Virus record (IMG/VR): IMGVR_UViG_3300045988_036724
DNA from: a virus
Strand: one strand, 5' to 3'
Length of the DNA: 41,473 nucleotides
Shown: positions 8,967 to 41,473 of the stretch, piece by piece
Layout: each line of letters begins with the position of its first letter
How positions within the stretch are numbered: the first letter of the stretch is position 1
The notes under the pieces: generated by a model
Told to the model about the DNA's origin: nothing
Seen by the model: only the letters and a program-made list of their open reading frames with translations
Databases searched by the model: none
Program-made: the position numbers and the translations under genes

Positions 8967-9042
8967 ATTCCCGTAGCTCAAGTGATGGAGCAGCGGTCTC
9001 CAAAACCGCAGGCTGCAGGTTTAAGTCCTGCCGGGAATGCCA
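8967..9042 (+). tRNA. tRNA-Trp (anticodon CCA), CCA-encoded
   Basis: Acceptor ATTCCCG/CGGGAAT, D stem GCTC/GAGC, anticodon arm GCGGT-CTCCAAA-ACCGC, T arm GCAGG-TTTAAGT-CCTGC. The D loop lacks GG and the T loop lacks C56. Confidence 0.75.
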
Positions 9043-9627: not shown

Positions 9628-9629
9628 AT

Positions 9630-9702
9630 GCCGCTTTCGCACAACTGGCAGTGCTCCCGGCTCATAACCGGACGTGTGCAGGTTCGAGCCCTGCAAGCGG
9701 CA
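9630..9702 (+). tRNA. tRNA-Met (anticodon CAT; fMet, elongator Met or Ile2 cannot be resolved)
   Basis: Acceptor GCCGCTT/AAGCGGC, D arm GCAC-AACTGGCA-GTGC, anticodon loop CTCATAA, T arm GCAGG-TTCGAGC-CCTGC. Confidence 0.8.
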
Positions 9703-9773
9703 TATTCGATATTTCGACCGTTCGGATTTTCCGGGCGGTTTTTCTTTTGCACGAGTTTAGAGAGGTGGTGGCT

Positions 9774-16311: not shown

Positions 16312-16388
16312 GCCGTTTTAGCTCAGGTTGGCAGAGCGCCGGATTTGTAATCCGGGGGCCGTGGGTTCAAGCCCCACAGGCGGCACCA
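16312..16388 (+). tRNA. tRNA-Thr (anticodon TGT), CCA-encoded
   Basis: Acceptor GCCGTTT/AGGCGGC (two G-U pairs), D arm GCTC-AGGTTGGCA-GAGC, anticodon arm CCGGA-TTTGTAA-TCCGG, T arm GTGGG-TTCAAGC-CCCAC, then ACCA. Confidence 0.9.
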
Positions 16389-25284: not shown

Positions 25285-27021
25285 ATGGCTACGAATCTTA
25301 CTGACATCATCAAAAAAGTACGCACTGCCTTGCGAGGTGAAGAGGTGCGCGGCAGCATCGCCGACGGGCTGGAGTTTTGTGGGCAGATTTCCGAGAATGC
25401 CAAAGCAGATATGGAGGCAACTGCCGCATCCACCAAAGAGCAGCTGTCTAAAGATATCGACGCCAAAGCCGCAGAGACACTCAAGAGCATCCCGGAGAGC
25501 TATACGGAGATTGATGGAAGTGTGAAGCAGCTAAAGGAAGATTTATGGGAAAATCCATCTGTTTATTCGCCGTTTGAGTTGGGCACTTTAATTAATGGTG
25601 AAATTGCCAAAGTTAAATATAGAATTGTGTCCACAAACATTATCCATACCACCTCAAAACTGTACATTGCAATAGGCAAAAATAGGAGAGCTGGTATACA
25701 TTATTATGACTCTAATGGGAAATTTCTCTATGACTCAAAATGGCGTACCTTAGAATATGTCATTCCAGAAAACTCATACTTTAGAATTGTTATATCTGCA
25801 TTTCCGAAAACTGTGGAAGATGAATTACTTGAATATAAAGCAAATGTGAATACACTTTTGGAATATGTTAAATTTAATCCAATTTGTGAAATTCTTGCAA
25901 AAAATGCCGTAAAAGATATAGTTAAAAAATTGAGCAAAAGAGAAAAAATAACATTTTATGATTATTTTGAAACAAACGAATGGACATCTTGCAATGATTG
26001 GAATAATGGAGAACTTACATATACCGATACTAATTCAAGGTTGGGCTTGTTGAACATTATGGATACCGAGACCGACATTAATTTAAGTGTAGAAAAAGGT
26101 CGAAGATTAGGTGTTGCATATTTTGACGAAAACGGAAAGTTTGTTAAAGACCCGGGATGGCAGAAAGGGCACGTATTTATTCCTAAAAATTCTCATGTTA
26201 AGTTCTTAATTTCCCACACCGATGTCACTAATGATGACGAATTTGAGGAGTATGCCGATGCTAACAAATACTTAAAATACATTAGTTTTGAAAATTTTCA
26301 ATTCTTCAATAAAAAAATAAACGCATATCCATTTTCTACAAATGTTTCACTTGAAACAATAGTGGATACACAAAATTTGAAAAGAATGCAAGGCGGAGTC
26401 TTTGCTAATGGGTATTTATATTATGCCAAAACTGACGACACAATTGCTACAATATATAAATATGATTTGGCGTCTAAAACAGAAGTGCTGAGTGCGAGTG
26501 GCAATTACGGACACGCTGGAGATATGACATACAATTCCGCAAAAAATCTTATTGTTGTTATTCATGGAGGCACTTCGGAGACAAATATTTGGTTTTTGTC
26601 TCCCGAAACTCTTGAACTTGTGTCAAGTAAAACCGTATTGACTGCCGGAAGAAGAATTGGCGGAATAGCATATATTGGAGATAGTAATGAATATGTTTTG
26701 GAGCTATCCAAGGATGGCGTATGGAACAATTATAGCTTTGCAATATGCGATAATGATTTTAATATAAAGTTAGAATTTGAGCCAATAAAAAATGGCTACT
26801 TAATGCAAGGGATCGAATGCAATAATAATTTCATTTACTCACTATACGCATTCCCCAATATCGTCATTGTTTATGACTTGAACGGAGATTATGTTGGCTG
26901 CCATAAAATTGACATTTCGACTGAACCAGAATTTATTACATTGAATGGCGACGAAATTATTATCGGGTCAGATGGTGACGGGATTATCAGAAAAGCAACT
27001 CGAAAATACTTGTGGGAGTAA
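25285..27021 (+). CDS. tail fibre / receptor-binding protein, mosaic
   Basis: A GC-rich conserved N-terminus (about 80 aa) is followed by a very AT-rich body. The body contains a tandemly duplicated domain of about 90 aa (..G.HYYDSNGKF.. / ..GVAYFDENGKF..). Confidence 0.7.
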   Translation: MATNLTDIIKKVRTALRGEEVRGSIADGLEFCGQISENAKADMEATAASTKEQLSKDIDAKAAETLKSIPESYTEIDGSVKQLKEDLWENPSVYSPFELGTLINGEIAKVKYRIVSTNIIHTTSKLYIAIGKNRRAGIHYYDSNGKFLYDSKWRTLEYVIPENSYFRIVISAFPKTVEDELLEYKANVNTLLEYVKFNPICEILAKNAVKDIVKKLSKREKITFYDYFETNEWTSCNDWNNGELTYTDTNSRLGLLNIMDTETDINLSVEKGRRLGVAYFDENGKFVKDPGWQKGHVFIPKNSHVKFLISHTDVTNDDEFEEYADANKYLKYISFENFQFFNKKINAYPFSTNVSLETIVDTQNLKRMQGGVFANGYLYYAKTDDTIATIYKYDLASKTEVLSASGNYGHAGDMTYNSAKNLIVVIHGGTSETNIWFLSPETLELVSSKTVLTAGRRIGGIAYIGDSNEYVLELSKDGVWNNYSFAICDNDFNIKLEFEPIKNGYLMQGIECNNNFIYSLYAFPNIVIVYDLNGDYVGCHKIDISTEPEFITLNGDEIIIGSDGDGIIRKATRKYLWE

Positions 27022-32908: not shown

Positions 32909-33310
32909 ATGCTGGATAAACTGAATCATCTGAAAGACGAAATGTGCGAAGAGCTCATGGATCTGACCGACAAAAAGAACCGATCCCCGGGCGATGTTGA
33001 GATGATCGGCGAAATCGTGGACATCATTCTGGACATCCACCGCATCGAGGACTACTGCGAGGGCGGCGAGTACAGCCGTGCAGGCGAGTGGGAAGCTGAC
33101 ATGCGCGGATCTTTCAGCCGCGATGCCGGAAACGGTTACAACCGGGGCAACAGCTATGCCAACCGAGGCCGTCATTATGTGCGCGGGCACTACTCCCGCA
33201 CGGATGGCCGTGAGCGTATAATCTCTGACATCGAGGACATGATGCAGGACGCCACCGGCGCAGAGCGCGATGCCTGCAAGCGGGCCGCTGACATCTTGCG
33301 CAACGCATAA
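32909..33310 (+). CDS. hypothetical protein (helical ends, central G/Y/S/R-rich low-complexity region)
   Basis: AAAGGAG RBS. 133 aa. Confidence 0.65.
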   Translation: MLDKLNHLKDEMCEELMDLTDKKNRSPGDVEMIGEIVDIILDIHRIEDYCEGGEYSRAGEWEADMRGSFSRDAGNGYNRGNSYANRGRHYVRGHYSRTDGRERIISDIEDMMQDATGAERDACKRAADILRNA

Positions 33311-33327
33311 GAAAAGGGGCGGCAGGC

Positions 33328-33657
33328 ATGGACATTGACGAGATCAACACCCATATTCACAAGCTGAAATGCGGTGCAACGGACTGGCAGAGCGTGGAAA
33401 AGCTTGCCGCCCTCTGCACTGTGCGGGACGAGCTGGAAGAAACACACTCACCTGAAACGAAGATCCAGGCATTGCCGCCCGCGACTTATGCGGCGGCGTA
33501 CTCCACAGCAACGGAACCTCAAAGCGACTTTGTGGCGGCTGCCAGCTCTGTTCCTTTCGGCGGTCTGATGCAGGTGCTTGACGAGCACATGAAAGCAATA
33601 AAGCTGGTGTACCCGAAAGAGTATGAGCTAGTAATGCGGAAGATAAGCGACTTGTAA
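33328..33657 (+). CDS. hypothetical protein
   Basis: 109-aa ORF, the last gene before attP. Confidence 0.6.
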   Translation: MDIDEINTHIHKLKCGATDWQSVEKLAALCTVRDELEETHSPETKIQALPPATYAAAYSTATEPQSDFVAAASSVPFGGLMQVLDEHMKAIKLVYPKEYELVMRKISDL

Positions 33658-33712
33658 AAAGACATAGAATGTGCTATTTTTACATAGTCTTCAACGTTGG
33701 GACGCGAGGCAC

Positions 33713-33741
33713 ATAATCTAACAATAATCTGACAAATCAAT
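33713..33741 (+). repeat. attP arm-type repeat R1 (ATAATCTAACAATAATCTGACAAATCAAT)
   Basis: Contains two AATCT(A/G)ACAA units. A near-identical repeat lies at 33906-33935. Confidence 0.8.
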
Positions 33742-33770
33742 GATTATTTGCATAAATACGTCAAATAAAC

Positions 33771-33819
33771 TTGATTTGTAATCAGTGGGTTGCAGGTTCA
33801 ACTCCTGTCACCAGCTCCA
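33771..33819 (+). other. attP core: 3' portion (anticodon arm to CCA) of a tRNA-Thr(UGU)
   Basis: TTGA-TTTGTAA-TCAG, T arm GCAGG-TTCAACT-CCTGT, acceptor 3' strand CACCAGC-T-CCA. There is no matching 5' half, and a terminator hairpin follows. Confidence 0.8.
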
Positions 33820-33905
33820 AAAATAAACGCACGAACGATGAAAACGATTCGTTTGTGCGTTTTTCTTTTTGCTTAAAATACCTTAAAATCTCCTGAATGA
33901 ACGTG

Positions 33906-33935
33906 ATAATCTAACAAACAATCTAACAAATCAAT
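33906..33935 (+). repeat. attP arm-type repeat R2 (ATAATCTAACAAACAATCTAACAAATCAAT)
   Basis: Direct repeat of R1, on the other side of the core. It overlaps the int stop codon. Confidence 0.8.
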
Positions 33936-35064
33936 ACTTCATTTTTTGCATTTCCCGCAACAGATAAGCCGGGTCATTGTGGGAGACGTACTTGTTGGCT
34001 GTGGTGGAGAAATTTTTGTGACCCAAGATTGCCTGCACGGCGGTCTTTTCCAGGCCGCACTCCACCATCTTGCTGCTGGCTGTGTGGCGCAGCGTGTGTG
34101 GATGCACGCCCTCTATATGGCATTCCTGCATCAACGCCCGGAACTTTGTAGCCACGTTACGCTTGTCCAGCTTTGTGCCGGCTTTGGACGGTATCAGCCA
34201 TTCACACCCGCTGTCCATCATCCAAAAGGCAATGATCTTGTAAATGGGCTCAAGGATGGGGATGATGCGGTTCTTGCCCGCCTCGGTCTTTTCACCGCCC
34301 TGCATGTACCGCTCTTTCAGGTTCACGTCCTCACAGCGCATGGAAAGCAGCTCATCGATACGCATACCGGTGTAAAGCAGCACCATTGCGATTTGCGCCG
34401 TCTGCCCAAACTTCGGGTCGTCTTGTCGGCCGCTGATCCGCTCAATCTCTTGGGCGGTCAGGGTGCGTTCTTCCTTGCCTGTAGCCGCCGGGAGCTGCAG
34501 CAGCATGGCGTAATTTTTGTTTATGATATCCTGAGCCATTGCCCACTCGCAGATCTGGCTGAAAAGCGTGCGCTGCTTTTCGCAGGAGCTGCGTGAAAGG
34601 CCCTTTTCCACCATTGCGTCAATGACCTGTTGATAATCTGCCGCTTTCAAGTCCCGCAATTGTCGGTCGTATAGCGGCGCAGCCTTTGCATAGGCCAGCT
34701 CGTACCCCTTTTTCATGTCAGTACTGAGCTTGTCAAACTTGGGCTGCACTTTCCATTGGGCGTAGGCATCCGCAAAAGTGAATTTCAGACGCGCTGCGGG
34801 GGTGTTCTGGGCGTTGTAAGCATCCAGTGCTTGTACTGCTTCGCCCGGCGTCGCAAACGTCCCCAGAACGTCTCGCTTGGCTGTCAGGGCCACATACGGC
34901 TTTGACCTCGTCCCGCTCAGTTTATACACGCTGCCGCTGCCCTTTGGGCGGCGGCGTTTTTTTCTTTGCTGCGGGGCGGCTTCCGGCTGCTTCTTCCCGC
35001 ACCACGGACAAAAAGAAGCACCATCCGGGATCTCTTTCCGGCAGCATGGTCTCACGCATTTCAT
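33931..35064 (-). CDS. int: tyrosine integrase with N-terminal zinc ribbon and AP2-like arm-binding domain
   Basis: CCRKEIPDGASFCPWCG; GSGSVYKLSGTRSKPYVA...LGTFATPGEA; C-terminal HTLRHT...LGH...Y catalytic signature. Confidence 0.95.
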   Translation of the reverse strand: MKCVRPCCRKEIPDGASFCPWCGKKQPEAAPQQRKKRRRPKGSGSVYKLSGTRSKPYVALTAKRDVLGTFATPGEAVQALDAYNAQNTPAARLKFTFADAYAQWKVQPKFDKLSTDMKKGYELAYAKAAPLYDRQLRDLKAADYQQVIDAMVEKGLSRSSCEKQRTLFSQICEWAMAQDIINKNYAMLLQLPAATGKEERTLTAQEIERISGRQDDPKFGQTAQIAMVLLYTGMRIDELLSMRCEDVNLKERYMQGGEKTEAGKNRIIPILEPIYKIIAFWMMDSGCEWLIPSKAGTKLDKRNVATKFRALMQECHIEGVHPHTLRHTASSKMVECGLEKTAVQAILGHKNFSTTANKYVSHNDPAYLLREMQKMKY

Positions 35065-35067
35065 GGC

Positions 35068-35655
35068 TTACTCCTTTTTCTGCCCGATATATCCGAATGC
35101 GCCATTTTCAGCAGCGGCTCTTCCGGCCTTGTAGTTGATCTTCAGGTCGTCAATGGGAGGGTGCGGAGCGTCCGGGCATGGGTCTAATCCCATGCTCTGG
35201 GCAAAGTTGTATTGGTCGATGATGGTTCCGCATACGCTGACCCGGTTATTGAGCGGGCAGTGCAAGTTGGCTGCCACCTCGGAGATCACCGCGGGCGGGC
35301 TGCTGCCGTGGCTGCCTTTCAGTATGAAGAGAAGCAGCCTTTTTGTCAGCGGCGGCAGTTTTACCACGATACGGCGCAACTCCGCGTTTAACTCATCGTC
35401 GTCCTTGCCGTCATCCGGCACTTTGTACAGATCCGGGTGGGTCATCTCCATAAACACCGTGATGGGCGACACCCCACACGCCGTGCACCAGTCCATGATC
35501 TCGTCACTGTCCGGGCTGGTGCAGCCTTTTTCCCAGCTCTGCACGGTGCGCTCCCCTTTTTCGATGCGCCTTGCGATCTCCACTTGGCTCAGGCCAGCAG
35601 ACACCCGTGCTTTTGCAAGCGCTTTCCCGATTTGGCTCGCCGTAAAATAACTCAT
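35068..35655 (-). CDS. XRE-family HTH protein with a C-terminal domain of about 130 aa
   Basis: ATG at 35655. LSQVEIARRIEKGERTVQSWEKG. Only 3 nt separate it from int. Confidence 0.8.
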   Translation of the reverse strand: MSYFTASQIGKALAKARVSAGLSQVEIARRIEKGERTVQSWEKGCTSPDSDEIMDWCTACGVSPITVFMEMTHPDLYKVPDDGKDDDELNAELRRIVVKLPPLTKRLLLFILKGSHGSSPPAVISEVAANLHCPLNNRVSVCGTIIDQYNFAQSMGLDPCPDAPHPPIDDLKINYKAGRAAAENGAFGYIGQKKE

Positions 35656-35692
35656 ACTTTCGCCCCCATAATTCCGGTGTATTTTTAACAAA

Positions 35693-35719
35693 AAATGGCG
35701 CAGAAAAAATCTGCGCCAT
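35693..35719 (-). terminator. perfect 11-bp hairpin with T-run on the minus strand
   Basis: AATGGCGCAGA aaaaa TCTGCGCCATT. Confidence 0.5.
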
Positions 35720-35813
35720 TCGACAAATTTTATCCGTATTTTATTTTCCAACGGCGCATGGTAGAATTTGGTTTGTAAATCGTAGATGTGCACAAAAGAA
35801 AGGAGAAAGCAAA

Positions 35814-35924
35814 ATGGATTTTGAGCAAAGAAACGGTAAAGAAAACGAAATGACCATCATCGATGGAATGCCCGCCAGTATCCTGACTGGCACCGACCGC
35901 ACCCCTGCACCCTGGGAGGAATGA
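35814..35924 (+). CDS. 36-aa micro-ORF
   Basis: AAAGGAG RBS. MDFEQRNGKENEMTIIDGMPASILTGTDRTPAPWEE. Below the ORF-track size cutoff. Confidence 0.4.
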   Translation: MDFEQRNGKENEMTIIDGMPASILTGTDRTPAPWEE

Positions 35925-35927
35925 GTT

Positions 35928-36140
35928 ATGAAAAATCTGTCACACTTTCGCACCCATGCCCGTGCCCTGCTGGCCTGCTATTTGGATATGACCCCGGAGC
36001 AGCAGCGCCTTGCTCGCGCTTACATTCAAGATAAGGCCCTGCCGGAGGTGCAAGCCCTGCGTAACGCAGCCGGTACGCCCGGCGGGGCGCTGGCCGCTGA
36101 CCTGTTGCAAAATTTGCAACAGCCTTGCAACCGCGAATAA
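35928..36140 (+). CDS. hypothetical small protein
   Basis: GGGAGGA RBS. 70 aa. Followed by the hairpin ACGCGCA..TGCGCGT. Confidence 0.55.
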   Translation: MKNLSHFRTHARALLACYLDMTPEQQRLARAYIQDKALPEVQALRNAAGTPGGALAADLLQNLQQPCNRE

Positions 36141-36299
36141 CAACGCGCATATTTTGCGCGTATTCAGCGTAAAACGTGCAAAAGTCAGCGTAAATTTTAA
36201 CGCTTCAACGCAAATGAATAAATTTTTAACTTGTTTTGCGCATTTTTTTACGCTTGACGATATACAACTAATAGTTTTATAATATGGTTGTAAACAGGT

Positions 36300-37016
36300 T
36301 TACAGGCCAAGCAACTGAGATTTCTTTGCGTTGTACTCCGCTTCCGTGATGGCCCCCATATCCAGCAGCTGCTTAAACTTCAAAAGTTCATCGGCAGAGC
36401 TGGGGGCAGCCGGAGCGGTGCCCCGCGGCTGTTCTGGAGAGCCTTTGCAACTCTTGAGAAACGCAGTCATTCCGCCTGGATAAACCGTTGTCGGCAAGTT
36501 GCTTTCGCCTAGTGGAAGCGAAAAGTGGATAGATACGCTCTCTTTACTGCGACCCTTGCGGGTCTCTGTTTTAGCGGTGGCAGCGCCCACGATCGCACCC
36601 ACAGACCCGGCAACGGCTGCACCGATCACGGCACGGCCAATACCGCCCTTTGTCTCTGTCACCGTCAGATCGTCAGGCGCGTCAGATTCATAACCAACGA
36701 CTTCATCAAAGCTGTAGATCATGCGAGGGCCTTTATCACCGCCTCGGTGCCCAAAGTAAAAAAGCCGGTCGGTTTTGTCAATCGACACAAAGAGCGCGTC
36801 ACCATCATAGATGGAATCGGTTTCTTTGAACACTTTCCGACGCTGTTCCAGTGTAACCCAGTAGCCCACAAGGGCAGCTGTCGGTTGCTTTGCAGCCCGG
36901 ATGCCCAATTTTGAAAAGAAAAAATTGCTGCAGCTGGCGCAAATCAAGCCATCCGCGCTTTTCTCACGGTTCAGAAAGCCCAGCTTGCCGCCGCATATGG
37001 GGCAGATATTCGCCAT
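36300..37016 (-). CDS. zinc-ribbon / glycine-zipper / SHOCT-domain protein
   Basis: CPICGGKLG...CASCS; GGIGRAVIGAAVAGSVGAIVGAATA; C-terminal ELLKFKQLLDMGAITEAEYNAKKSQLL. Confidence 0.8.
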   Translation of the reverse strand: MANICPICGGKLGFLNREKSADGLICASCSNFFFSKLGIRAAKQPTAALVGYWVTLEQRRKVFKETDSIYDGDALFVSIDKTDRLFYFGHRGGDKGPRMIYSFDEVVGYESDAPDDLTVTETKGGIGRAVIGAAVAGSVGAIVGAATAKTETRKGRSKESVSIHFSLPLGESNLPTTVYPGGMTAFLKSCKGSPEQPRGTAPAAPSSADELLKFKQLLDMGAITEAEYNAKKSQLLGL

Positions 37017-37018
37017 GA

Positions 37019-38302
37019 TTACACCTCATTCTTCATTTCTTCTCTAGCTTTTTCAAGCTTCTTGAACTCGTCTTGAATGATTGATTTCAAATCATCGTTA
37101 TAATTGTGCGTAAGCAAGTCAATAGAATCTTTCCAACGCTGGTTAGAGTTCAGACGGCCACGATCCGTTTTCAAGGAACAAATCTTGTCCATTTGAGCGC
37201 TGGAAGAATTTTCAATTACAATCGAAAACAGATCTTTGGTGTGCGTTTCGACACTCCATAAAAGTAACGAAGGACTGTAGTTGAATTTCGCGCCGTGCAT
37301 CTCTGCAGCAGAAAGCTGTTTCAAATCTCTTTTGACAAAATCAATTTTATCAAAAAAATCAGTTACATCTTTTAAACGCTCAATGGATAGAAAATTGTCC
37401 AGAACGCGCCGCATTACAGCTTGCAAATATCCGACAGGAAGTTTATTTGCATAAGATGTGTCTATGCTCAAAGCCGCGGCTGTACGGTCCAACCCATCAC
37501 GAAAACCAAGCTCGTTCCAGTTCAAGGAGGCGGATTCAAGCTTTTTTCTGTATTTATCCACATCGATTCCGACGGCTTTGAGTTTTGCATCTTCCTCTGC
37601 TTTTTTGTGAGCCTTGTATTCGTCAATCTCGCGCCATATCTGGTAAACAACATCTTCCCAGTTACGCGGATCGCCACCTGCAAGTCTCCGATTGATGCCC
37701 CAAACTGAAAAATCATCAGACGCTTCAAGGTTATCAACCGTCAGCCCAGGAGCGTTCATCATATAAACCACATAAAAGTTGTCAGCTACTTCTTGCTTTC
37801 CAAATGCCGTTGGCGCGTATTTCCCGTTTTCCTGCATCTGGATAAACCCTCTTTCTTCAAGGGATTCCAGATAAAAATTGACGTTTTTCATACCGTATTC
37901 AAACCACCAGAAGCCTGGGTACCCCCGCTTTGGGTTTGGATAATCGCCAAAGGAGCAATAGTGTATCAGTGCAATTTCACCCACATACAGCCCTCTGGGG
38001 GATGGATAAGATGTTTTCTTTCGCTCCGCAAAAGACTGTACACGCAGCATCCCGTTTTTGGCTTTGAGCGAAAAAGACGGAACAAAATCAGTGTAATACT
38101 CGGGTTTTTCGTAAAACTTCTCATCCCCGTCTGGAATTGGAGGCTCATCCACAAAGGGCTTTGAAAAATCTTCACAGATGGCGTTTTCTTTTAGCTTTAA
38201 ACCCGCTTCGGGTTTTAACGGCGCTTCTCGGATGTCAGATTTGGCTTCAGACTGCGCTTTTGAATCGGGCTTTTTCCCAAAGACAAGAGACAGAAGCCCC
38301 AT
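37019..38302 (-). CDS. 427-aa protein of unknown function, AT-rich
   Basis: GAGGTG RBS. Translationally coupled to the downstream gene (TAA-tc-ATG). I recognise no motif in it. Confidence 0.8.
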   Translation of the reverse strand: MGLLSLVFGKKPDSKAQSEAKSDIREAPLKPEAGLKLKENAICEDFSKPFVDEPPIPDGDEKFYEKPEYYTDFVPSFSLKAKNGMLRVQSFAERKKTSYPSPRGLYVGEIALIHYCSFGDYPNPKRGYPGFWWFEYGMKNVNFYLESLEERGFIQMQENGKYAPTAFGKQEVADNFYVVYMMNAPGLTVDNLEASDDFSVWGINRRLAGGDPRNWEDVVYQIWREIDEYKAHKKAEEDAKLKAVGIDVDKYRKKLESASLNWNELGFRDGLDRTAAALSIDTSYANKLPVGYLQAVMRRVLDNFLSIERLKDVTDFFDKIDFVKRDLKQLSAAEMHGAKFNYSPSLLLWSVETHTKDLFSIVIENSSSAQMDKICSLKTDRGRLNSNQRWKDSIDLLTHNYNDDLKSIIQDEFKKLEKAREEMKNEV

Positions 38303-38350
38303 ACCGCAACACCTCGCACACTACATATTATATAAGGAGGATAAAACAAA

Positions 38351-38455
38351 ATGCAGGGTACAACTTTCAGCCAGGACGAAATCAAAAGAATCATCGAAAA
38401 GCTAAAGAGTGACCCTGCATTCCGTCAGAAAGTCCTCGATATTCTAAACAGCTAA
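38351..38455 (+). CDS. 34-aa micro-ORF convergent with cI
   Basis: AAGGAGG lies 9 nt before ATG 38351. MQGTTFSQDEIKRIIEKLKSDPAFRQKVLDILNS. No clear promoter. Confidence 0.3.
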   Translation: MQGTTFSQDEIKRIIEKLKSDPAFRQKVLDILNS

Positions 38456-38456
38456 A

Positions 38457-38798
38457 TCACAGTAACGCCCGGATCGCATTCTTTTTTGCGTCCGATGCGG
38501 CCATAATTTTTCTTACAAGCTCAGCATCTTCTGGAGACAGACTGCTCAGGTCTATCTCTCCAGCGATGCTGGGTTTTTCTTTTTGTGCCGGCTCTTGACC
38601 CATGAGCTCCTCAATAGAAATTTGCAAAAAGTCGGCTACCAGCAATAGCTTGTCTTTCGGCGGATAGCGCTTTCCATTAGCCCATTTTCCTACTGTTCCG
38701 TTGGCAAATTTCAAATCTTTCTCCATTTTTGTAATGGAGCTTCCTCGATTTTTACACGATGCACGGATAAATTCCACCAGTTCAGGCAAAGAACGCAT
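38457..38798 (-). CDS. CI-like repressor (XRE HTH)
   Basis: SSITKMEKDLKFANGTVGKWANGKRYP. Divergent from the Cro-like gene across an operator-promoter region. Confidence 0.85.
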   Translation of the reverse strand: MRSLPELVEFIRASCKNRGSSITKMEKDLKFANGTVGKWANGKRYPPKDKLLLVADFLQISIEELMGQEPAQKEKPSIAGEIDLSSLSPEDAELVRKIMAASDAKKNAIRALL

Positions 38799-38814
38799 AA
38801 AAAAATTCCTCCAA

Positions 38815-38858
38815 TAGCCTAATTTTCTATTGACAGCTAGAAAATTAGGCTATATAAT
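38815..38858 (+). promoter_or_regulatory. early rightward promoter (TTGACA-17-TATAAT) embedded in a perfect 15-bp inverted-repeat operator
   Basis: TAGCCTAATTTTCTA ttgacagc TAGAAAATTAGGCTA tataat. A further ATTTTCTAG half-site lies near 38960. Confidence 0.8.
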
Positions 38859-38999
38859 AGAGAGCGTAAGGAGCAAACAAAACCAAAGCCCCTGACAATA
38901 TTATATCGGGCAGACGCTAGATTTTATTCACTTTGTACCTTGCAAATACATAGTAGCATATTTTCTAGTGATTTTCAAGCCCGGAAAGGAGAATTGCTA

Positions 39000-39227
39000 G
39001 TGAATGTTTCAAAAATTGACCAGTTTTGCAAGTTGCACGGACTGAGCCGCACCGATCTGGAGGCGGCTGCAGGCCTGAGCAACGGCGCAATCGGCAAGTG
39101 GGAGCGCTCGATTTACGGGCCCAGCCTTTCGCAGCTGCTCAAGCTTGCTAAGTATTTCAAGGTCACACTGAACGAGCTTGTGGTCTACGATGAGGAAAGA
39201 AAAGGAAAGGAGAATACAAGTGCCTGA
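39000..39227 (+). CDS. Cro-like HTH regulator
   Basis: AAAGGAG lies 8 nt before GTG 39000. LSRTDLEAAAGLSNGAIGKWER. Confidence 0.8.
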   Translation: MNVSKIDQFCKLHGLSRTDLEAAAGLSNGAIGKWERSIYGPSLSQLLKLAKYFKVTLNELVVYDEERKGKENTSA

Positions 39228-39417
39228 TTTTGAAACATTTTTGCTTGCGCTTGCATCGATTGTGCTCATTGTCGTTGCTTTTGGCTTTTCGTGGGCCGTC
39301 ATTTCCGGCCTTTGGTGGCTTATCTGCATGCTCATCGGTTGGCAGTTCTCTTTCGGCGTGGCCACCGCAATCTGGATTGTGGCGATGCTTATGAAATGGG
39401 TGACAAACCATGATTAA
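39220..39417 (+). CDS. small multi-pass membrane protein
   Basis: AAGGAG lies before GTG 39220. FLLALASIVLIVVAFGFSWAVISGLWWLICMLIGW... Confidence 0.6.
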   Translation: MPDFETFLLALASIVLIVVAFGFSWAVISGLWWLICMLIGWQFSFGVATAIWIVAMLMKWVTNHD

Positions 39418-39619
39418 GCCCGAACCGTGGACTGGCCGTTTGATTGGCCGAATGCACAACAACAAAGTCACGCTGGAACAGCTTGCCGCTTATCTGGGCT
39501 GGACAAAGAGCTACTGCTCGATGATCCTGAATGGCCAGCGCAAGCCGCGCGGCATCCGCGAGAAAATGGAAGCCGCCGTCAGCGAGATCATCAAGGAAAA
39601 GGAGGACAAAACGGCATGA
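39410..39619 (+). CDS. small HTH-like regulatory protein
   Basis: 69 aa. VTLEQLAAYLGWTKSYCSMILNG. Confidence 0.6.
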   Translation: MIKPEPWTGRLIGRMHNNKVTLEQLAAYLGWTKSYCSMILNGQRKPRGIREKMEAAVSEIIKEKEDKTA

Positions 39620-40404
39620 GCGAATTAAACAATCTCATCCCCATTAGCTACGAAAACCCGGAGCGCCCCACGGTGAGCGGCCGGGAGCTGCACGAGTTTT
39701 TGCAGGTTGATAGCAACTATACCACTTGGTTCAAGCGGATGTGTGAGTATGGCTTCACCGAGGGCGAGGACTATGTTCCAATTTTGGAAAATAGGTCTGA
39801 CGGCCTTGCAGGAAAGCCCCGCACCGATCACCAGTTGACTATCCCGATGGCCAAAGAGCTGTGCATGATCCAGCGCAACGAGCGTGGAAAGCAGGCCCGG
39901 CAATATTTTCTGGCCATTGAAGCCCAGTGGAATAGCCCGGAAGCGGTCATGCGCCGGGCGGTGCTTATCGCCCAGAAGCAGAACGACCAGCTCAAGGCCG
40001 TAAACAAACAGCTTTTGGCTGAGAACAGCGACCTGAAGCCAGATGCAGAGTATGCCAGGGCCGTGTGCATTGGCGATAACTGCCGGACGGCTACCAGCAT
40101 TGCAAAGGATTACGGCATGAGCGGCGAGAAGCTGAACAGCATCCTGCACGGGCTGAAAATCCAGTGGAAGAACAGCGACGGGCAGTGGGTGTTATACGCA
40201 AAGTATAGCGGCAAAGGTTACACCAAAAACCGCAAAGGCCGTCCGTTTGAGCACAACAGTGGCAAGATCACCACGCCAAACACCACCGTTTGGACGGAAG
40301 CGGGCCAGCGGTTCATTTATGAGCAGCTCAAGGCCATTGGCCTGACGCCCAGCATCGACCACAACGAGAATGTGGAACAGACCACGTTTGAAAGGGGTGC
40401 GTAA
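39616..40404 (+). CDS. antirepressor (AntA/ANT N-terminal plus KilAC C-terminal domains)
   Basis: ATG 39616. VSGRELHEFLQVDSNYTTWFKRM...; later TATSIAKDYGMSGEKLNSILHGLKIQ. Confidence 0.85.
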   Translation: MSELNNLIPISYENPERPTVSGRELHEFLQVDSNYTTWFKRMCEYGFTEGEDYVPILENRSDGLAGKPRTDHQLTIPMAKELCMIQRNERGKQARQYFLAIEAQWNSPEAVMRRAVLIAQKQNDQLKAVNKQLLAENSDLKPDAEYARAVCIGDNCRTATSIAKDYGMSGEKLNSILHGLKIQWKNSDGQWVLYAKYSGKGYTKNRKGRPFEHNSGKITTPNTTVWTEAGQRFIYEQLKAIGLTPSIDHNENVEQTTFERGA

Positions 40405-40444
40405 CATGACGCTGAACTGCATGAACGGTAAAGGAGGAGCAAGC

Positions 40445-40687
40445 ATGAAAAAAGCTATTGTTGGCGTAGCGTCCGTATTGGCAAGCGCTTTGCTGATGGC
40501 CGGATGCAATAAGCAGGTCATCGATTTGACTTATGAATACAACTGGGCACAGCTGAAAATGCCCGACGGAACGATTGTCGAGGGCAATGTCGAAAGCTGG
40601 TGCGACTATGAAGGCGACCAGCTTCAGGTTGTGATTGACGGTGTGACCTATCTGGTTCATTCGTCCAACATTGTTATGCGTCATTGA
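40445..40687 (+). CDS. small lipoprotein
   Basis: AAAGGAGG RBS. MKKAIVGVASVLASALLMAGC lipobox. Confidence 0.7.
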   Translation: MKKAIVGVASVLASALLMAGCNKQVIDLTYEYNWAQLKMPDGTIVEGNVESWCDYEGDQLQVVIDGVTYLVHSSNIVMRH

Positions 40688-40703
40688 TGCAAGGAGGATC
40701 TTT

Positions 40704-41021
40704 ATGAAAACCACGATGCGCGATAAGGTTTGCCAGCTGATTGGCAAGTATCAGTATCTCGAAGACTATTACAAAACGAAAGCGGCCATCAACACACAAA
40801 AGAGCTTCCTCGACGGCGGCTTTATCATCCGGCTTGCAGAGCCGGCGCAGGCGGATATGTGCGGCCAGTTCTTGGCCGATTTGAACAAGCTGCTGGAAGA
40901 GGACGAAGCTGCAGCAGCCCAGGAAGACCCCCGCAAGACCGCCCCGGCTGGCAAGTGGTGCGCGGACTCAGCGGCACAGGCAGCTGAGAGCGCTGCAAAG
41001 GAAGGTTATGAGCATGAGTGA
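40704..41021 (+). CDS. hypothetical protein
   Basis: AAGGAGG RBS. 105 aa. Confidence 0.6.
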   Translation: MKTTMRDKVCQLIGKYQYLEDYYKTKAAINTQKSFLDGGFIIRLAEPAQADMCGQFLADLNKLLEEDEAAAAQEDPRKTAPAGKWCADSAAQAAESAAKEGYEHE

Positions 41022-41473
41022 AAAGATCATCGCATACAAGGCCATGGACAAAAATATGCAGTGCCGTGGCAAGCAGTATGAGGTTGGCAAGACCTACCAC
41101 GAGGACAAGGCGGACTGTTGCAATGCCGGAATGCACGCCTGCGAGAACCCGCTGGATGTGCTGCACTACTACCCGTTGAAAGATGGCTCGCGCTTTTTTG
41201 AGGTCGAGTGCGGCGGGAGCGTGGATAAAAGCGCAGAGGACAGTAAGTTGGCCTGCACTGAGCTGACGGTAAAAGGCGAAGTGAATTTTGCAGGGCTTGT
41301 AAAAGCTACGGTGAATGCCGTTTTTAATCGGGTGAAGGGCAAAGAACCTTTTTCCAGCGGCGATTACAGCACGGCGGGTTCCAGCGGTTATTGCAGCACG
41401 GCGGGTTCCAGCGGCGATTACAGCACGGCGGGTTCCAGCGGCGATTACAGCACGGCGGGTTCCAGCGGCGATT
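41014..41473 (+). CDS. N-terminal part of tandem-repeat protein (runs off the window end; continues at 56..408)
   Basis: ATG 41014 (or 41008). N-domain AYKAMDKNMQCRGKQYEVGKTYHEDKADCCNAGMHACENPLDVLHYY (DUF7666-like by recollection), then 27-nt repeats from 41353. Confidence 0.8.
   Translation, partial: MSEKIIAYKAMDKNMQCRGKQYEVGKTYHEDKADCCNAGMHACENPLDVLHYYPLKDGSRFFEVECGGSVDKSAEDSKLACTELTVKGEVNFAGLVKATVNAVFNRVKGKEPFSSGDYSTAGSSGYCSTAGSSGDYSTAGSSGDYSTAGSSGD

Follow-up and report, generated by a model that had tools for sequence, protein, structure and literature searches.

The slot beside the repressor is where temperate phages keep exclusion genes, among them rexAB of lambda, sie2009 of lactococcal phages and ltp of streptococcal phages. 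Sie2009 and Ltp (the latter from the S. thermophilus phage TP-J34) are small, membrane-associated exclusion products, encoded between integrase and repressor and variably present, and cargo carried between repressor and integrase is, as a kind, well known. Here I describe two genes occupying such a slot in the IMG/VR virus record IMGVR_UViG_3300045988_036724, whose full 41,473 nucleotides (nt) are hereafter called the window. Both lie on the minus strand between a cI-like repressor gene and a tyrosine integrase gene (int), and encode proteins of 427 amino acids (aa; 37019..38302) and 238 aa (36300..37016). An earlier note on this DNA had proposed that they form a matched pair of sensor and membrane effector. 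The region is the lysogeny-module cargo slot of a human-gut Firmicutes temperate siphovirus, in which the two genes prove to be separate cassettes.

The arrangement resembles that of lambda cI-rexA-rexB: two genes follow the repressor directly on the lysogeny strand, and a soluble, DNA-binding protein is predicted for the first of them, a membrane-associated one for the second. The likeness does not extend to sequence or family: at E<=1, no Pfam match was obtained for the 427-aa protein and no RexB match for the 238-aa protein. The latter has a single hydrophobic insert, modelled inside a PH-like domain, instead of the four transmembrane helices of RexB, and whereas lambda rexAB is inherited as a pair, the window genes assort independently.

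With genes of the Sie2009/Ltp type the window genes share the repressor-integrase slot and strand, and their presence likewise varies among related phages. However, the 238-aa protein has neither an N-terminal transmembrane anchor nor a lipoprotein signal, its N-terminus being a zinc ribbon, and I know of no homology between it and Sie2009 or Ltp. A further point of comparison is the membrane-bound defence nuclease SNIPE, in whose homologues PH/DUF4428 domains replace the transmembrane anchor (bioRxiv 10.1101/2025.11.03.685801). The 238-aa protein carries the same kinds of module, which there substitute for the anchor of a defence protein acting at the injection site; yet nuclease and DUF4041 domains are absent from both window proteins, and the likeness is confined to the targeting modules.

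Independent assortment of the two genes

Both open reading frames (ORFs) are present as the earlier note had described, from 38302 to 37019 and from 37016 to 36300, each with an ATG start. Their junction is indeed tight: it reads GAGGTG-TAA-TC-ATG, with the stop codon of the 427-aa gene at 37019-37021, two further nt, and the start of the 238-aa gene at 37016, and the Shine-Dalgarno sequence of the 238-aa gene sits inside the 3′ end of the 427-aa gene. The 427-aa protein comprises an N-terminal module (N-module) and a helical C-terminal module (C-module), described below, and genes for either module also occur separately.

I surveyed the 80 best IMG/VR loci that encode a homologue of the 238-aa protein at >=85% identity. 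In 49 of these the homologue is alone, directly after cI and a small antisense ORF, while 29 possess a C-module-only gene (200–250 aa) 2 nt upstream of it; an N-module gene ahead of the homologue was found in none (0/80), and two loci were left unclassified. Co-conservation of the two genes, which the earlier note had named as a test of pairing, therefore largely fails.

Full-length 427-type genes show the converse. Four loci (L001-L004) encode one together with a 238 homologue, but it is found without a 238-like gene in four others (L169-L172), which encode P0016 (51% identity) or P0013 (72%), both of which sit between cI and int. A tblastn search with the 238-aa protein found nothing in L169-L172. 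In L171, the DNA homology to the window runs from 38318 to 37034 and resumes at 36303, leaving a clean absence of the 238 cassette. At yet another locus, the place of the 238-aa gene behind a distant C-module gene (P0303) is taken by a gene for an unrelated 244-aa protein that bears a signal peptide (L162:5597-6331, plus strand), and the DNA matches the window again from precisely the 238 stop codon onward. This 244-aa protein has no family assignment, and is itself another candidate surface-acting cargo gene.

The recombination breakpoints map to 37028-37038 (12–22 nt upstream of the 238 start), to 37441 (the start of the C-module) and to 36303. In L005/L006, where the cargo is a 240-aa C-module-only gene, the homology block spans the 3′ end of cI, a 34-aa ORF and the first cargo codons. 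Among 67 genomic N-module loci, from Clostridia, Collinsella, Selenomonas and Akkermansia, none has a 238-like or C-module neighbour. Finally, partner types are interleaved in the tree of 238 homologues, whose identity is 0.907-0.913 within a type and 0.906 when the two main types are compared with each other; no co-divergence of the 238-aa protein and its partner is seen.

Since either gene is found without the other, and recombination has its breakpoints at the gene boundaries, the cassettes in this slot assort independently, a conclusion I draw with high confidence for the two genes studied here. The proposal of a matched sensor and membrane effector is not supported by these observations. 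The 427-aa gene is a cargo cassette whose presence varies among related phages, and the 238-aa gene the common cargo gene of the phage lineage, with cassette edges at about 37028-37038 and at 36303. Because cassettes are exchanged at this slot, close gene spacing there is no evidence of joint function: the 2-nt spacing reflects co-transcription, not functional dependence or pairing. Whatever the two proteins do, genes that are translationally coupled and occupy one slot behind cI are not, on that account, a two-gene system. The novelty lies in what this particular slot contains, and in the documented finding that at least four cargo cassettes recombine freely at a single site. The cI-int slot of this lineage is thus a cassette exchange site, and provides a defined set of candidate genes to test.

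Both genes are real and under purifying selection. The pairwise ratio of nonsynonymous to synonymous substitution rates (dN/dS) against relatives is 0.06 for the 427-aa gene and 0.09-0.24 for the 238-aa gene, and both therefore encode functional proteins.

Composition and transcription

The two genes differ in composition. The AT-richness that the earlier note had ascribed to both holds for the 427-aa gene, whose guanine-cytosine (GC) content of 43.3% is in the lowest 3.7% of same-size segments, but not for the 238-aa gene, which at 54.1% is indistinguishable from the backbone (53.6%). Low GC is common to the 427-aa gene, the adjacent cI and the 34-aa ORF. The 427-aa gene is optional, recently acquired, AT-rich cargo.

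Upstream of the 427-aa gene (38310..38332, minus strand), a TATAAT at 38327-38332 is followed by GAGGTG at 38310-38315, 7 nt before the start codon. The latter had been correctly noted, but of the private promoter, also proposed, only the TATAAT is seen: its best −35 matches 2/6 positions, an extended −10 is absent, and the site, which the promoter scan does not list, is a weak promoter candidate. The scan for terminator-like sites found none in the interval separating cI from the 427-aa gene, which may therefore be transcribed by read-through from the cI promoter.

Domain architecture of the 238-aa protein

All features in this and the next section are encoded on the minus strand. The domains recognized in the earlier note, namely a CxxC..CxxC zinc ribbon, a glycine zipper and a SHOCT domain, were recovered, DUF4428 and SHOCT both scoring above their Pfam cut-offs. 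The DUF4428 zinc ribbon spans residues 4–32 (C5, C8, C26, C29; 36921..37007) and matches PF14471 at 33.3 bits against a cut-off of 27.8, while the C-terminal SHOCT domain, residues 209–236 (36309..36392), matches PF09851 at 34.9 bits against a cut-off of 27. Between these, residues 68–191 (36444..36815) are predicted to form a PH-like beta-sandwich with a C-terminal helix, carrying the glycine zipper as an insert. The zipper, GGIGRAVIGAAVAGSVGAIVGAATA (residues 124–148; 36573..36647), is the sole hydrophobic stretch of the protein, with a Kyte-Doolittle score of 1.86 over 19 residues. Its residues G124, G132, G137, G140 and G144 are invariant across two clades that share only 37% identity.

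The protein belongs to phrog_888 (E=4.1e-34, residues 2–154) and is a member of its DUF4428, PH_gly_zipper and SHOCT architecture. The PF27000 PH_gly_zipper assignment is precomputed on homologues 85–92% identical to it, and on a neighbouring gene in related loci. Over 300 close homologues were found. The families to which the protein belongs are thus named, but uncharacterised: a literature search returned no functional study of the DUF4428, bacterial PH, glycine-zipper or ArfC families in a phage context, and no experimental study on the family of either window protein. SHOCT and SHOCT-like domains are predicted to serve as protein anchors at the inner leaflet of the membrane, and SHOCT-like domains occur in PSP envelope-stress systems (PMC11237479).

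For the 238-aa protein, AlphaFold gave a model with a mean predicted local distance difference test (pLDDT) score of 60. The zinc ribbon (78–88), with a helix, and the SHOCT domain (85–89) are confidently predicted, whereas the stretch between them is poor, down to 25–30 in the glycine zipper. In this low-confidence part, the sandwich is built from strands at residues 68–123 and 149–180 and a helix at 183–191, with the zipper inserted between strands. Foldseek gave no match to the PDB at E<=0.001, and the top fold matches, which are non-significant, are to PH domains (GRK2, Pob3 and p62).

If the modelled insert topology is right, both flanks of the hydrophobic segment would be on the same side of the membrane, and the 238-aa protein would be a peripheral or monotopic submembrane protein and not a single-pass one, an assignment that I consider tentative. 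A classical single-pass transmembrane topology is doubtful given that the segment is modelled inside the sandwich, though the model there is poor. For the same reason, and with the same low confidence of the model, the simple picture of the protein as a pore-forming effector is weakened.

Domain architecture of the 427-aa protein

The earlier note saw no recognisable motif in the 427-aa protein, and this was borne out by the absence of any Pfam or PADLOC match; neither window gene shows an enzymatic signature. No PHROG assignment was obtained, and NCBIfam gave only a sub-threshold match to Sso10a, a winged-helix chromatin protein, over residues 139–170 (E=0.025, below cut-off). A word-indexed search retrieved 37 relatives in three classes, namely full-length proteins of 403–429 aa, 240-aa proteins matching only the C-terminal ∼140 residues, and SAP-domain proteins of 343–399 aa matching only residues ∼55–230. 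The full-length homologues comprise 14 clusters at 69–86% identity and one at 51%.

AlphaFold models the protein (mean pLDDT 74) as five regions: a disordered N-terminus (residues 1–44), the N-module, a long helix (212–243), a disordered linker, and a helical C-module (290–426). The N-module, from about residue 50 to 245 (37568..38155), is winged-helix-like, with an aromatic-rich segment YPNPKRGYPGFWWFEYG; residues 50–180 are modelled at a pLDDT above 90, in a helix-helix-helix-hairpin arrangement. The C-module, residues 288–427 (37022..37441), is predicted all-helical, and also exists as stand-alone 200–250-aa proteins in the same slot. Foldseek found no PDB match for the model at E<=0.001; the best fold matches were the winged helices of MntR, DtxR and CggR, at a non-significant E of ∼1. 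A viral fold library returned uncharacterised relatives, one of them labelled MarR-like (E=3e-3), and searches with PDB sequence profiles matched only SAP domains, which the window protein lacks.

The two modules differ greatly in abundance. In an exhaustive profile search, the N-module family reached 526 clusters at 50% identity, and the C-module only a handful of proteins. The 427-aa protein is a member of an unnamed family. Its N-module is common among the mobile elements of gut Firmicutes, and its C-module is rare. The N-module core, ERKKTxYPSxRGLYxxEIxLLxYC...YPGFWWFEYG...RGFI...KYxLTxxG, is homologous to that of SAP-bearing members at E values of 1e-26 to 1e-39. These form a SAP/winged-helix family of Firmicutes and Actinobacteria mobile elements, part of phrog_10777, with which the 427-aa protein shares, besides the N-module, an MGLFxxFKK N-terminus, a YPxPKxGYPGFWWFEYG motif and, in several phages, the cI-int slot. 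Unlike them, it lacks the SAP insert and the near-invariant His of the YMH motif, and has the rare helical C-module instead of a TPR-like tail. A SAP motif is inserted at the wing position, between the RGFIQ and KYxLT strands, in 73 of 105 N-module family members, and is absent from the window protein and its full-length relatives. From the prevalence of this DNA-binding insert, it is reasonable to infer that the 427-aa protein binds DNA. Occasional family members are fused to other domains (Phage_Mu_F, TPR, RNase_T with BRCT, and a DUF4011-helicase-nuclease giant).

The combination of the two modules is not a one-off accident, as P0172, a distant protein, also joins an N-module, here SAP-bearing, to a divergent C-module (E=1e-6); its C-terminal part matches phrog_7974 and phrog_17596. 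P0172 and P0303 are both remote C-module relatives.

The N-terminal peptide MGLLSLVFGKKP (38267..38302) is common to the 427-type, C-module-only and SAP-family proteins, all three classes of relatives beginning with MG-hydrophobic-hydrophobic-x-x-F-x-K-K, and 107 of 183 family sequences begin with M[GSND]-hydrophobic-hydrophobic, usually followed by basic residues. The shared peptide resembles N-terminal amphipathic membrane-binding helices such as that of Vipp1/PspA, a lead that points to a possible membrane-binding role.

Recurrence in the lysogeny slots of other phages

Relatives of both proteins recur behind the repressors of other phages, those of the 238-aa protein directly after the repressor on the lysogeny strand of unrelated Firmicutes phages, at differing depths of similarity. 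In L164, a human-gut phage contig, a LexA-like cI is followed by a full-length 230-aa homologue of the 238-aa protein. The S. aureus phage SA13 encodes a phrog_888 member (gp03, bPH_3 and SHOCT) between ImmA and int; by tblastn, it aligns to the 238-aa protein only over the C-terminal SHOCT region. Staphylococcal members of phrog_888, including SA13 gp03 (labelled ‘PH domain-containing protein’), differ from the window protein in having a bPH_3 domain with neither zinc ribbon nor glycine zipper. Matches restricted to the SHOCT tail were found in gp22 of the R. gnavus phage phiRg519T2, encoded between an HTH (helix-turn-helix) regulator and int, in the L. casei phage C4.1, whose flanking genes are unannotated, and in ORF2 of L. 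garvieae PLg-TB25. PdpSau of S. aureus was also considered as a relative, but is an N-terminal transmembrane and OB-fold protein encoded beside the lysis module, and so unrelated.

For the N-module, two contigs (L011/L012) show a single SAP gene of this type in the order cI-ImmA-SAP protein-int, and in the L. curvatus phage TMW 1.1447 P1 a SAP/N-module protein is encoded between cI and int. The commonest neighbour families of genomic N-module genes are HTH_3, integrase, S24 and M78 domains. As a separate observation, a 163-aa protein of the ArfC family (PF27542) is encoded ∼250 nt upstream of a SAP/N-module gene (P0031) in three contigs (L008-L010). Two of these (L008 and L009) share the downstream genes; L010 differs there, the SAP gene lying beside DUF2326/MC7/CTD11 conflict-system genes. 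The ArfC protein and the SAP/N-module gene may be a conserved pair.

Possible roles of the two proteins

As a whole, these observations are in my view best explained by two independent cargo cassettes, each product acting alone, with the 238-aa protein a likely exclusion factor; I hold this reading to be somewhat better than an even bet. The 238-aa protein would be made in the lysogen and located at the cytoplasmic face of the membrane, a placement suggested by its PH domain, hydrophobic glycine-zipper loop and SHOCT domain, each of them a membrane-proximal module. There it would probably oligomerise and, alone, keep superinfecting phage out, by hindering DNA entry or, once triggered, by making the membrane permeable. 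The 427-aa protein would be DNA-binding, possibly membrane-tethered, and act alone as its relatives do, which are single genes between cI/ImmA and int; its target could be incoming DNA or the phage's own lysis-lysogeny switch. That at least one of the two genes has an anti-phage role is close to a coin toss, judged from position and cassette behaviour. Should either protein exclude phages, it would represent a further family of defence or exclusion proteins, missed by PADLOC, and this family would be common in human-gut Firmicutes prophages.

A bolder form of this proposal is that each gene is a new single-gene anti-phage factor at the inner membrane face, the two defining two widespread, unrecognised families of exclusion factors in prophages of gut Firmicutes. 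Here the protein with zinc ribbon, PH (glycine zipper) and SHOCT would oligomerise and block DNA entry or collapse the membrane potential, while proteins with the MGLF peptide and winged helix (SAP) would, tethered to the membrane, bind incoming DNA and trap or mark it. I regard this as possible, if rather unlikely; were it true, the homologues in phages of S. aureus and lactic acid bacteria would make the families experimentally tractable.

Several points weigh against the preferred reading of two exclusion cassettes acting singly. The PADLOC-DB 2.0 models, a check that the earlier note had called for, gave 0 families for both proteins and 10 relatives, and defence genes are only sporadic and only weakly enriched among the neighbours of N-module genes. 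Expression of both genes in the lysogen is deduced from strand and position. The insert topology of the glycine zipper is a tentative feature of a poor model (mean pLDDT 60), and the N-module is termed winged-helix-like on the basis of non-significant fold matches, a sub-threshold Sso10a match and the SAP insert of its relatives. Moreover, every C-module gene seen with context has a co-oriented downstream gene, 2 nt away or with a 4-nt overlap, and the C-module may be an accessory or adaptor to its downstream partner.

This last pattern also speaks for an obligate two-gene abortive-infection system similar to RexA/RexB, in which the 427-aa protein would sense infection, for example phage DNA via its winged helix, and activate the 238-aa protein to depolarise the membrane. 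The gene order, immediately behind cI as in lambda and with a spacing of 2 nt, and the predicted division into a soluble DNA-binding product and a membrane-associated one, fit such a system as well. However, close relatives carry either gene without the other, the 238-aa protein has not diverged along with its partner type, the 67 genomic N-module loci are devoid of 238-like or C-module neighbours, a C-module gene is followed elsewhere by an unrelated secreted protein, and neither RexA nor RexB is matched in Pfam at E<=1. I therefore consider an obligate pair improbable. The same low probability applies to a role in regulating lysogeny rather than in defence, whereby the 427-aa protein would bias the phage's own lysis-lysogeny switch and the 238-aa protein relay the state of the envelope or membrane to induction. 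It has a precedent in RexA, which biases the lambda switch toward the lytic state independently of RexB (PMC11077077), and in the SHOCT-like domains of envelope-stress systems (PMC11237479). The immunity region encloses both genes, with an HTH regulator on either side, the N-module is winged-helix-like with SAP-bearing relatives, and the 427-aa gene shares its low GC with cI and the 34-aa ORF, to which the first codons of the cargo are joined in the L005/L006 homology block. Yet close relatives that share the backbone can do without each of the two genes, presence and absence at a cargo slot fits accessory genes better than core regulators, and N-module relatives are also found outside prophages and fused to nucleases or helicases.

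Alternatively, the two proteins could be lysogenic-conversion or host-fitness factors with no part in phage conflict, providing for instance membrane stress tolerance or antimicrobial resistance. PH, SHOCT and glycine-zipper segments are general membrane-proximal modules, SHOCT-like domains having been linked to PSP systems (PMC11237479), and the number of matches to defence models is zero. Nevertheless, the repeated position behind repressors in unrelated Firmicutes phages is the classic location of exclusion genes, and the rapid turnover of cassettes is typical of conflict genes; I find such a role very improbable. A toxin-antitoxin reading was also considered and rejected, there being no family match and no small-partner architecture.

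Organization of the surrounding locus

The slot is ordered cI, small antisense ORF, cargo, HTH protein, int. As the earlier note had stated, the two cargo genes lie between cI and int on the lysogeny strand, with a cI-like HTH gene upstream on the same strand and genes for an HTH protein and a tyrosine integrase downstream. The 113-aa cI-like repressor (38457..38798, minus strand), which opens the lysogeny-strand block, scores above cut-off for HTH_3/HTH_26 and falls in the phrog_8/phrog_4 repressor families. Directly upstream of the integrase gene is that of the second HTH protein (HTH_3; 35068..35655, minus strand), ∼195 aa when counted from Met47 of its ORF and 195–197 aa in relatives. The integrase itself (377 aa; 33931..35064, minus strand) matches Phage_integrase at E=3.6e-31, and phrog_1. 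Beside int, a sequence resembling the 3′ half of a transfer RNA (tRNA), with the sequence ...GGTTGCAGGTTCAACTCCTGTCACCAGCTCCA (33771..33819, plus strand), is the probable attachment-site core; ARAGORN detects no complete tRNA at these positions.

The conserved 34-aa antisense ORF MQGTTFSQDEIKRIIEKLKSDPAFRQKVLDILNS (38351..38455, plus strand), which converges on cI and diverges from the 427-aa gene, has GGAGGA as its ribosome-binding site. It had been overlooked in the earlier note. It is called in all relatives and accompanies the immunity type: phages with other repressor types have unrelated 37–57-aa ORFs at this place, such as MNETDRQGYIDAIIKLLERADLRALRLIWIHAKGLVK. It seems to belong to the immunity cassette. 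It gives a weak, Nif11-leader-like match (E=0.006).

At the other end of the slot, a GC-rich hairpin at 36143..36161 (7 pairs, weak T-run), retrieved by the scan for terminator-like sites, is a possible bidirectional terminator between the convergent 238-aa gene and a 70-aa ORF on the plus strand (35928-36140), which separates the 238-aa gene from the HTH/integrase pair. A 36-aa ORF (∼35815-35925, plus strand) is called just upstream of the 70-aa ORF in relatives. Neither has a family match, and both are kept in all relatives with the same backbone.

Rfam yielded only sub-threshold chance matches over 33000-41473, and comparison of the region and of the 427-aa protein with cultured-phage and plasmid collections (megablast, tblastn) gave no match. 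Beyond cI, a perfect sigma-70 consensus promoter, TTGACA-17-TATAAT (38830-38858, plus strand), faces a cro-like gene (38940-39227), and together with a promoter on the opposite strand with a TG-extended −10 (38978-38950) constitutes a divergent immunity switch. Three tRNA genes are present inside the phage genome on the plus strand: Trp-CCA (8967-9042), Met-CAT (9629-9703) and Thr-TGT (16312-16388). The strongest compositional anomaly of the window is a 578-aa ORF (25285-27021, plus strand; GC ∼33–37%) directly after a 628-aa tail-region protein; the 578-aa ORF is probably a swapped receptor-binding or tail-fibre module.

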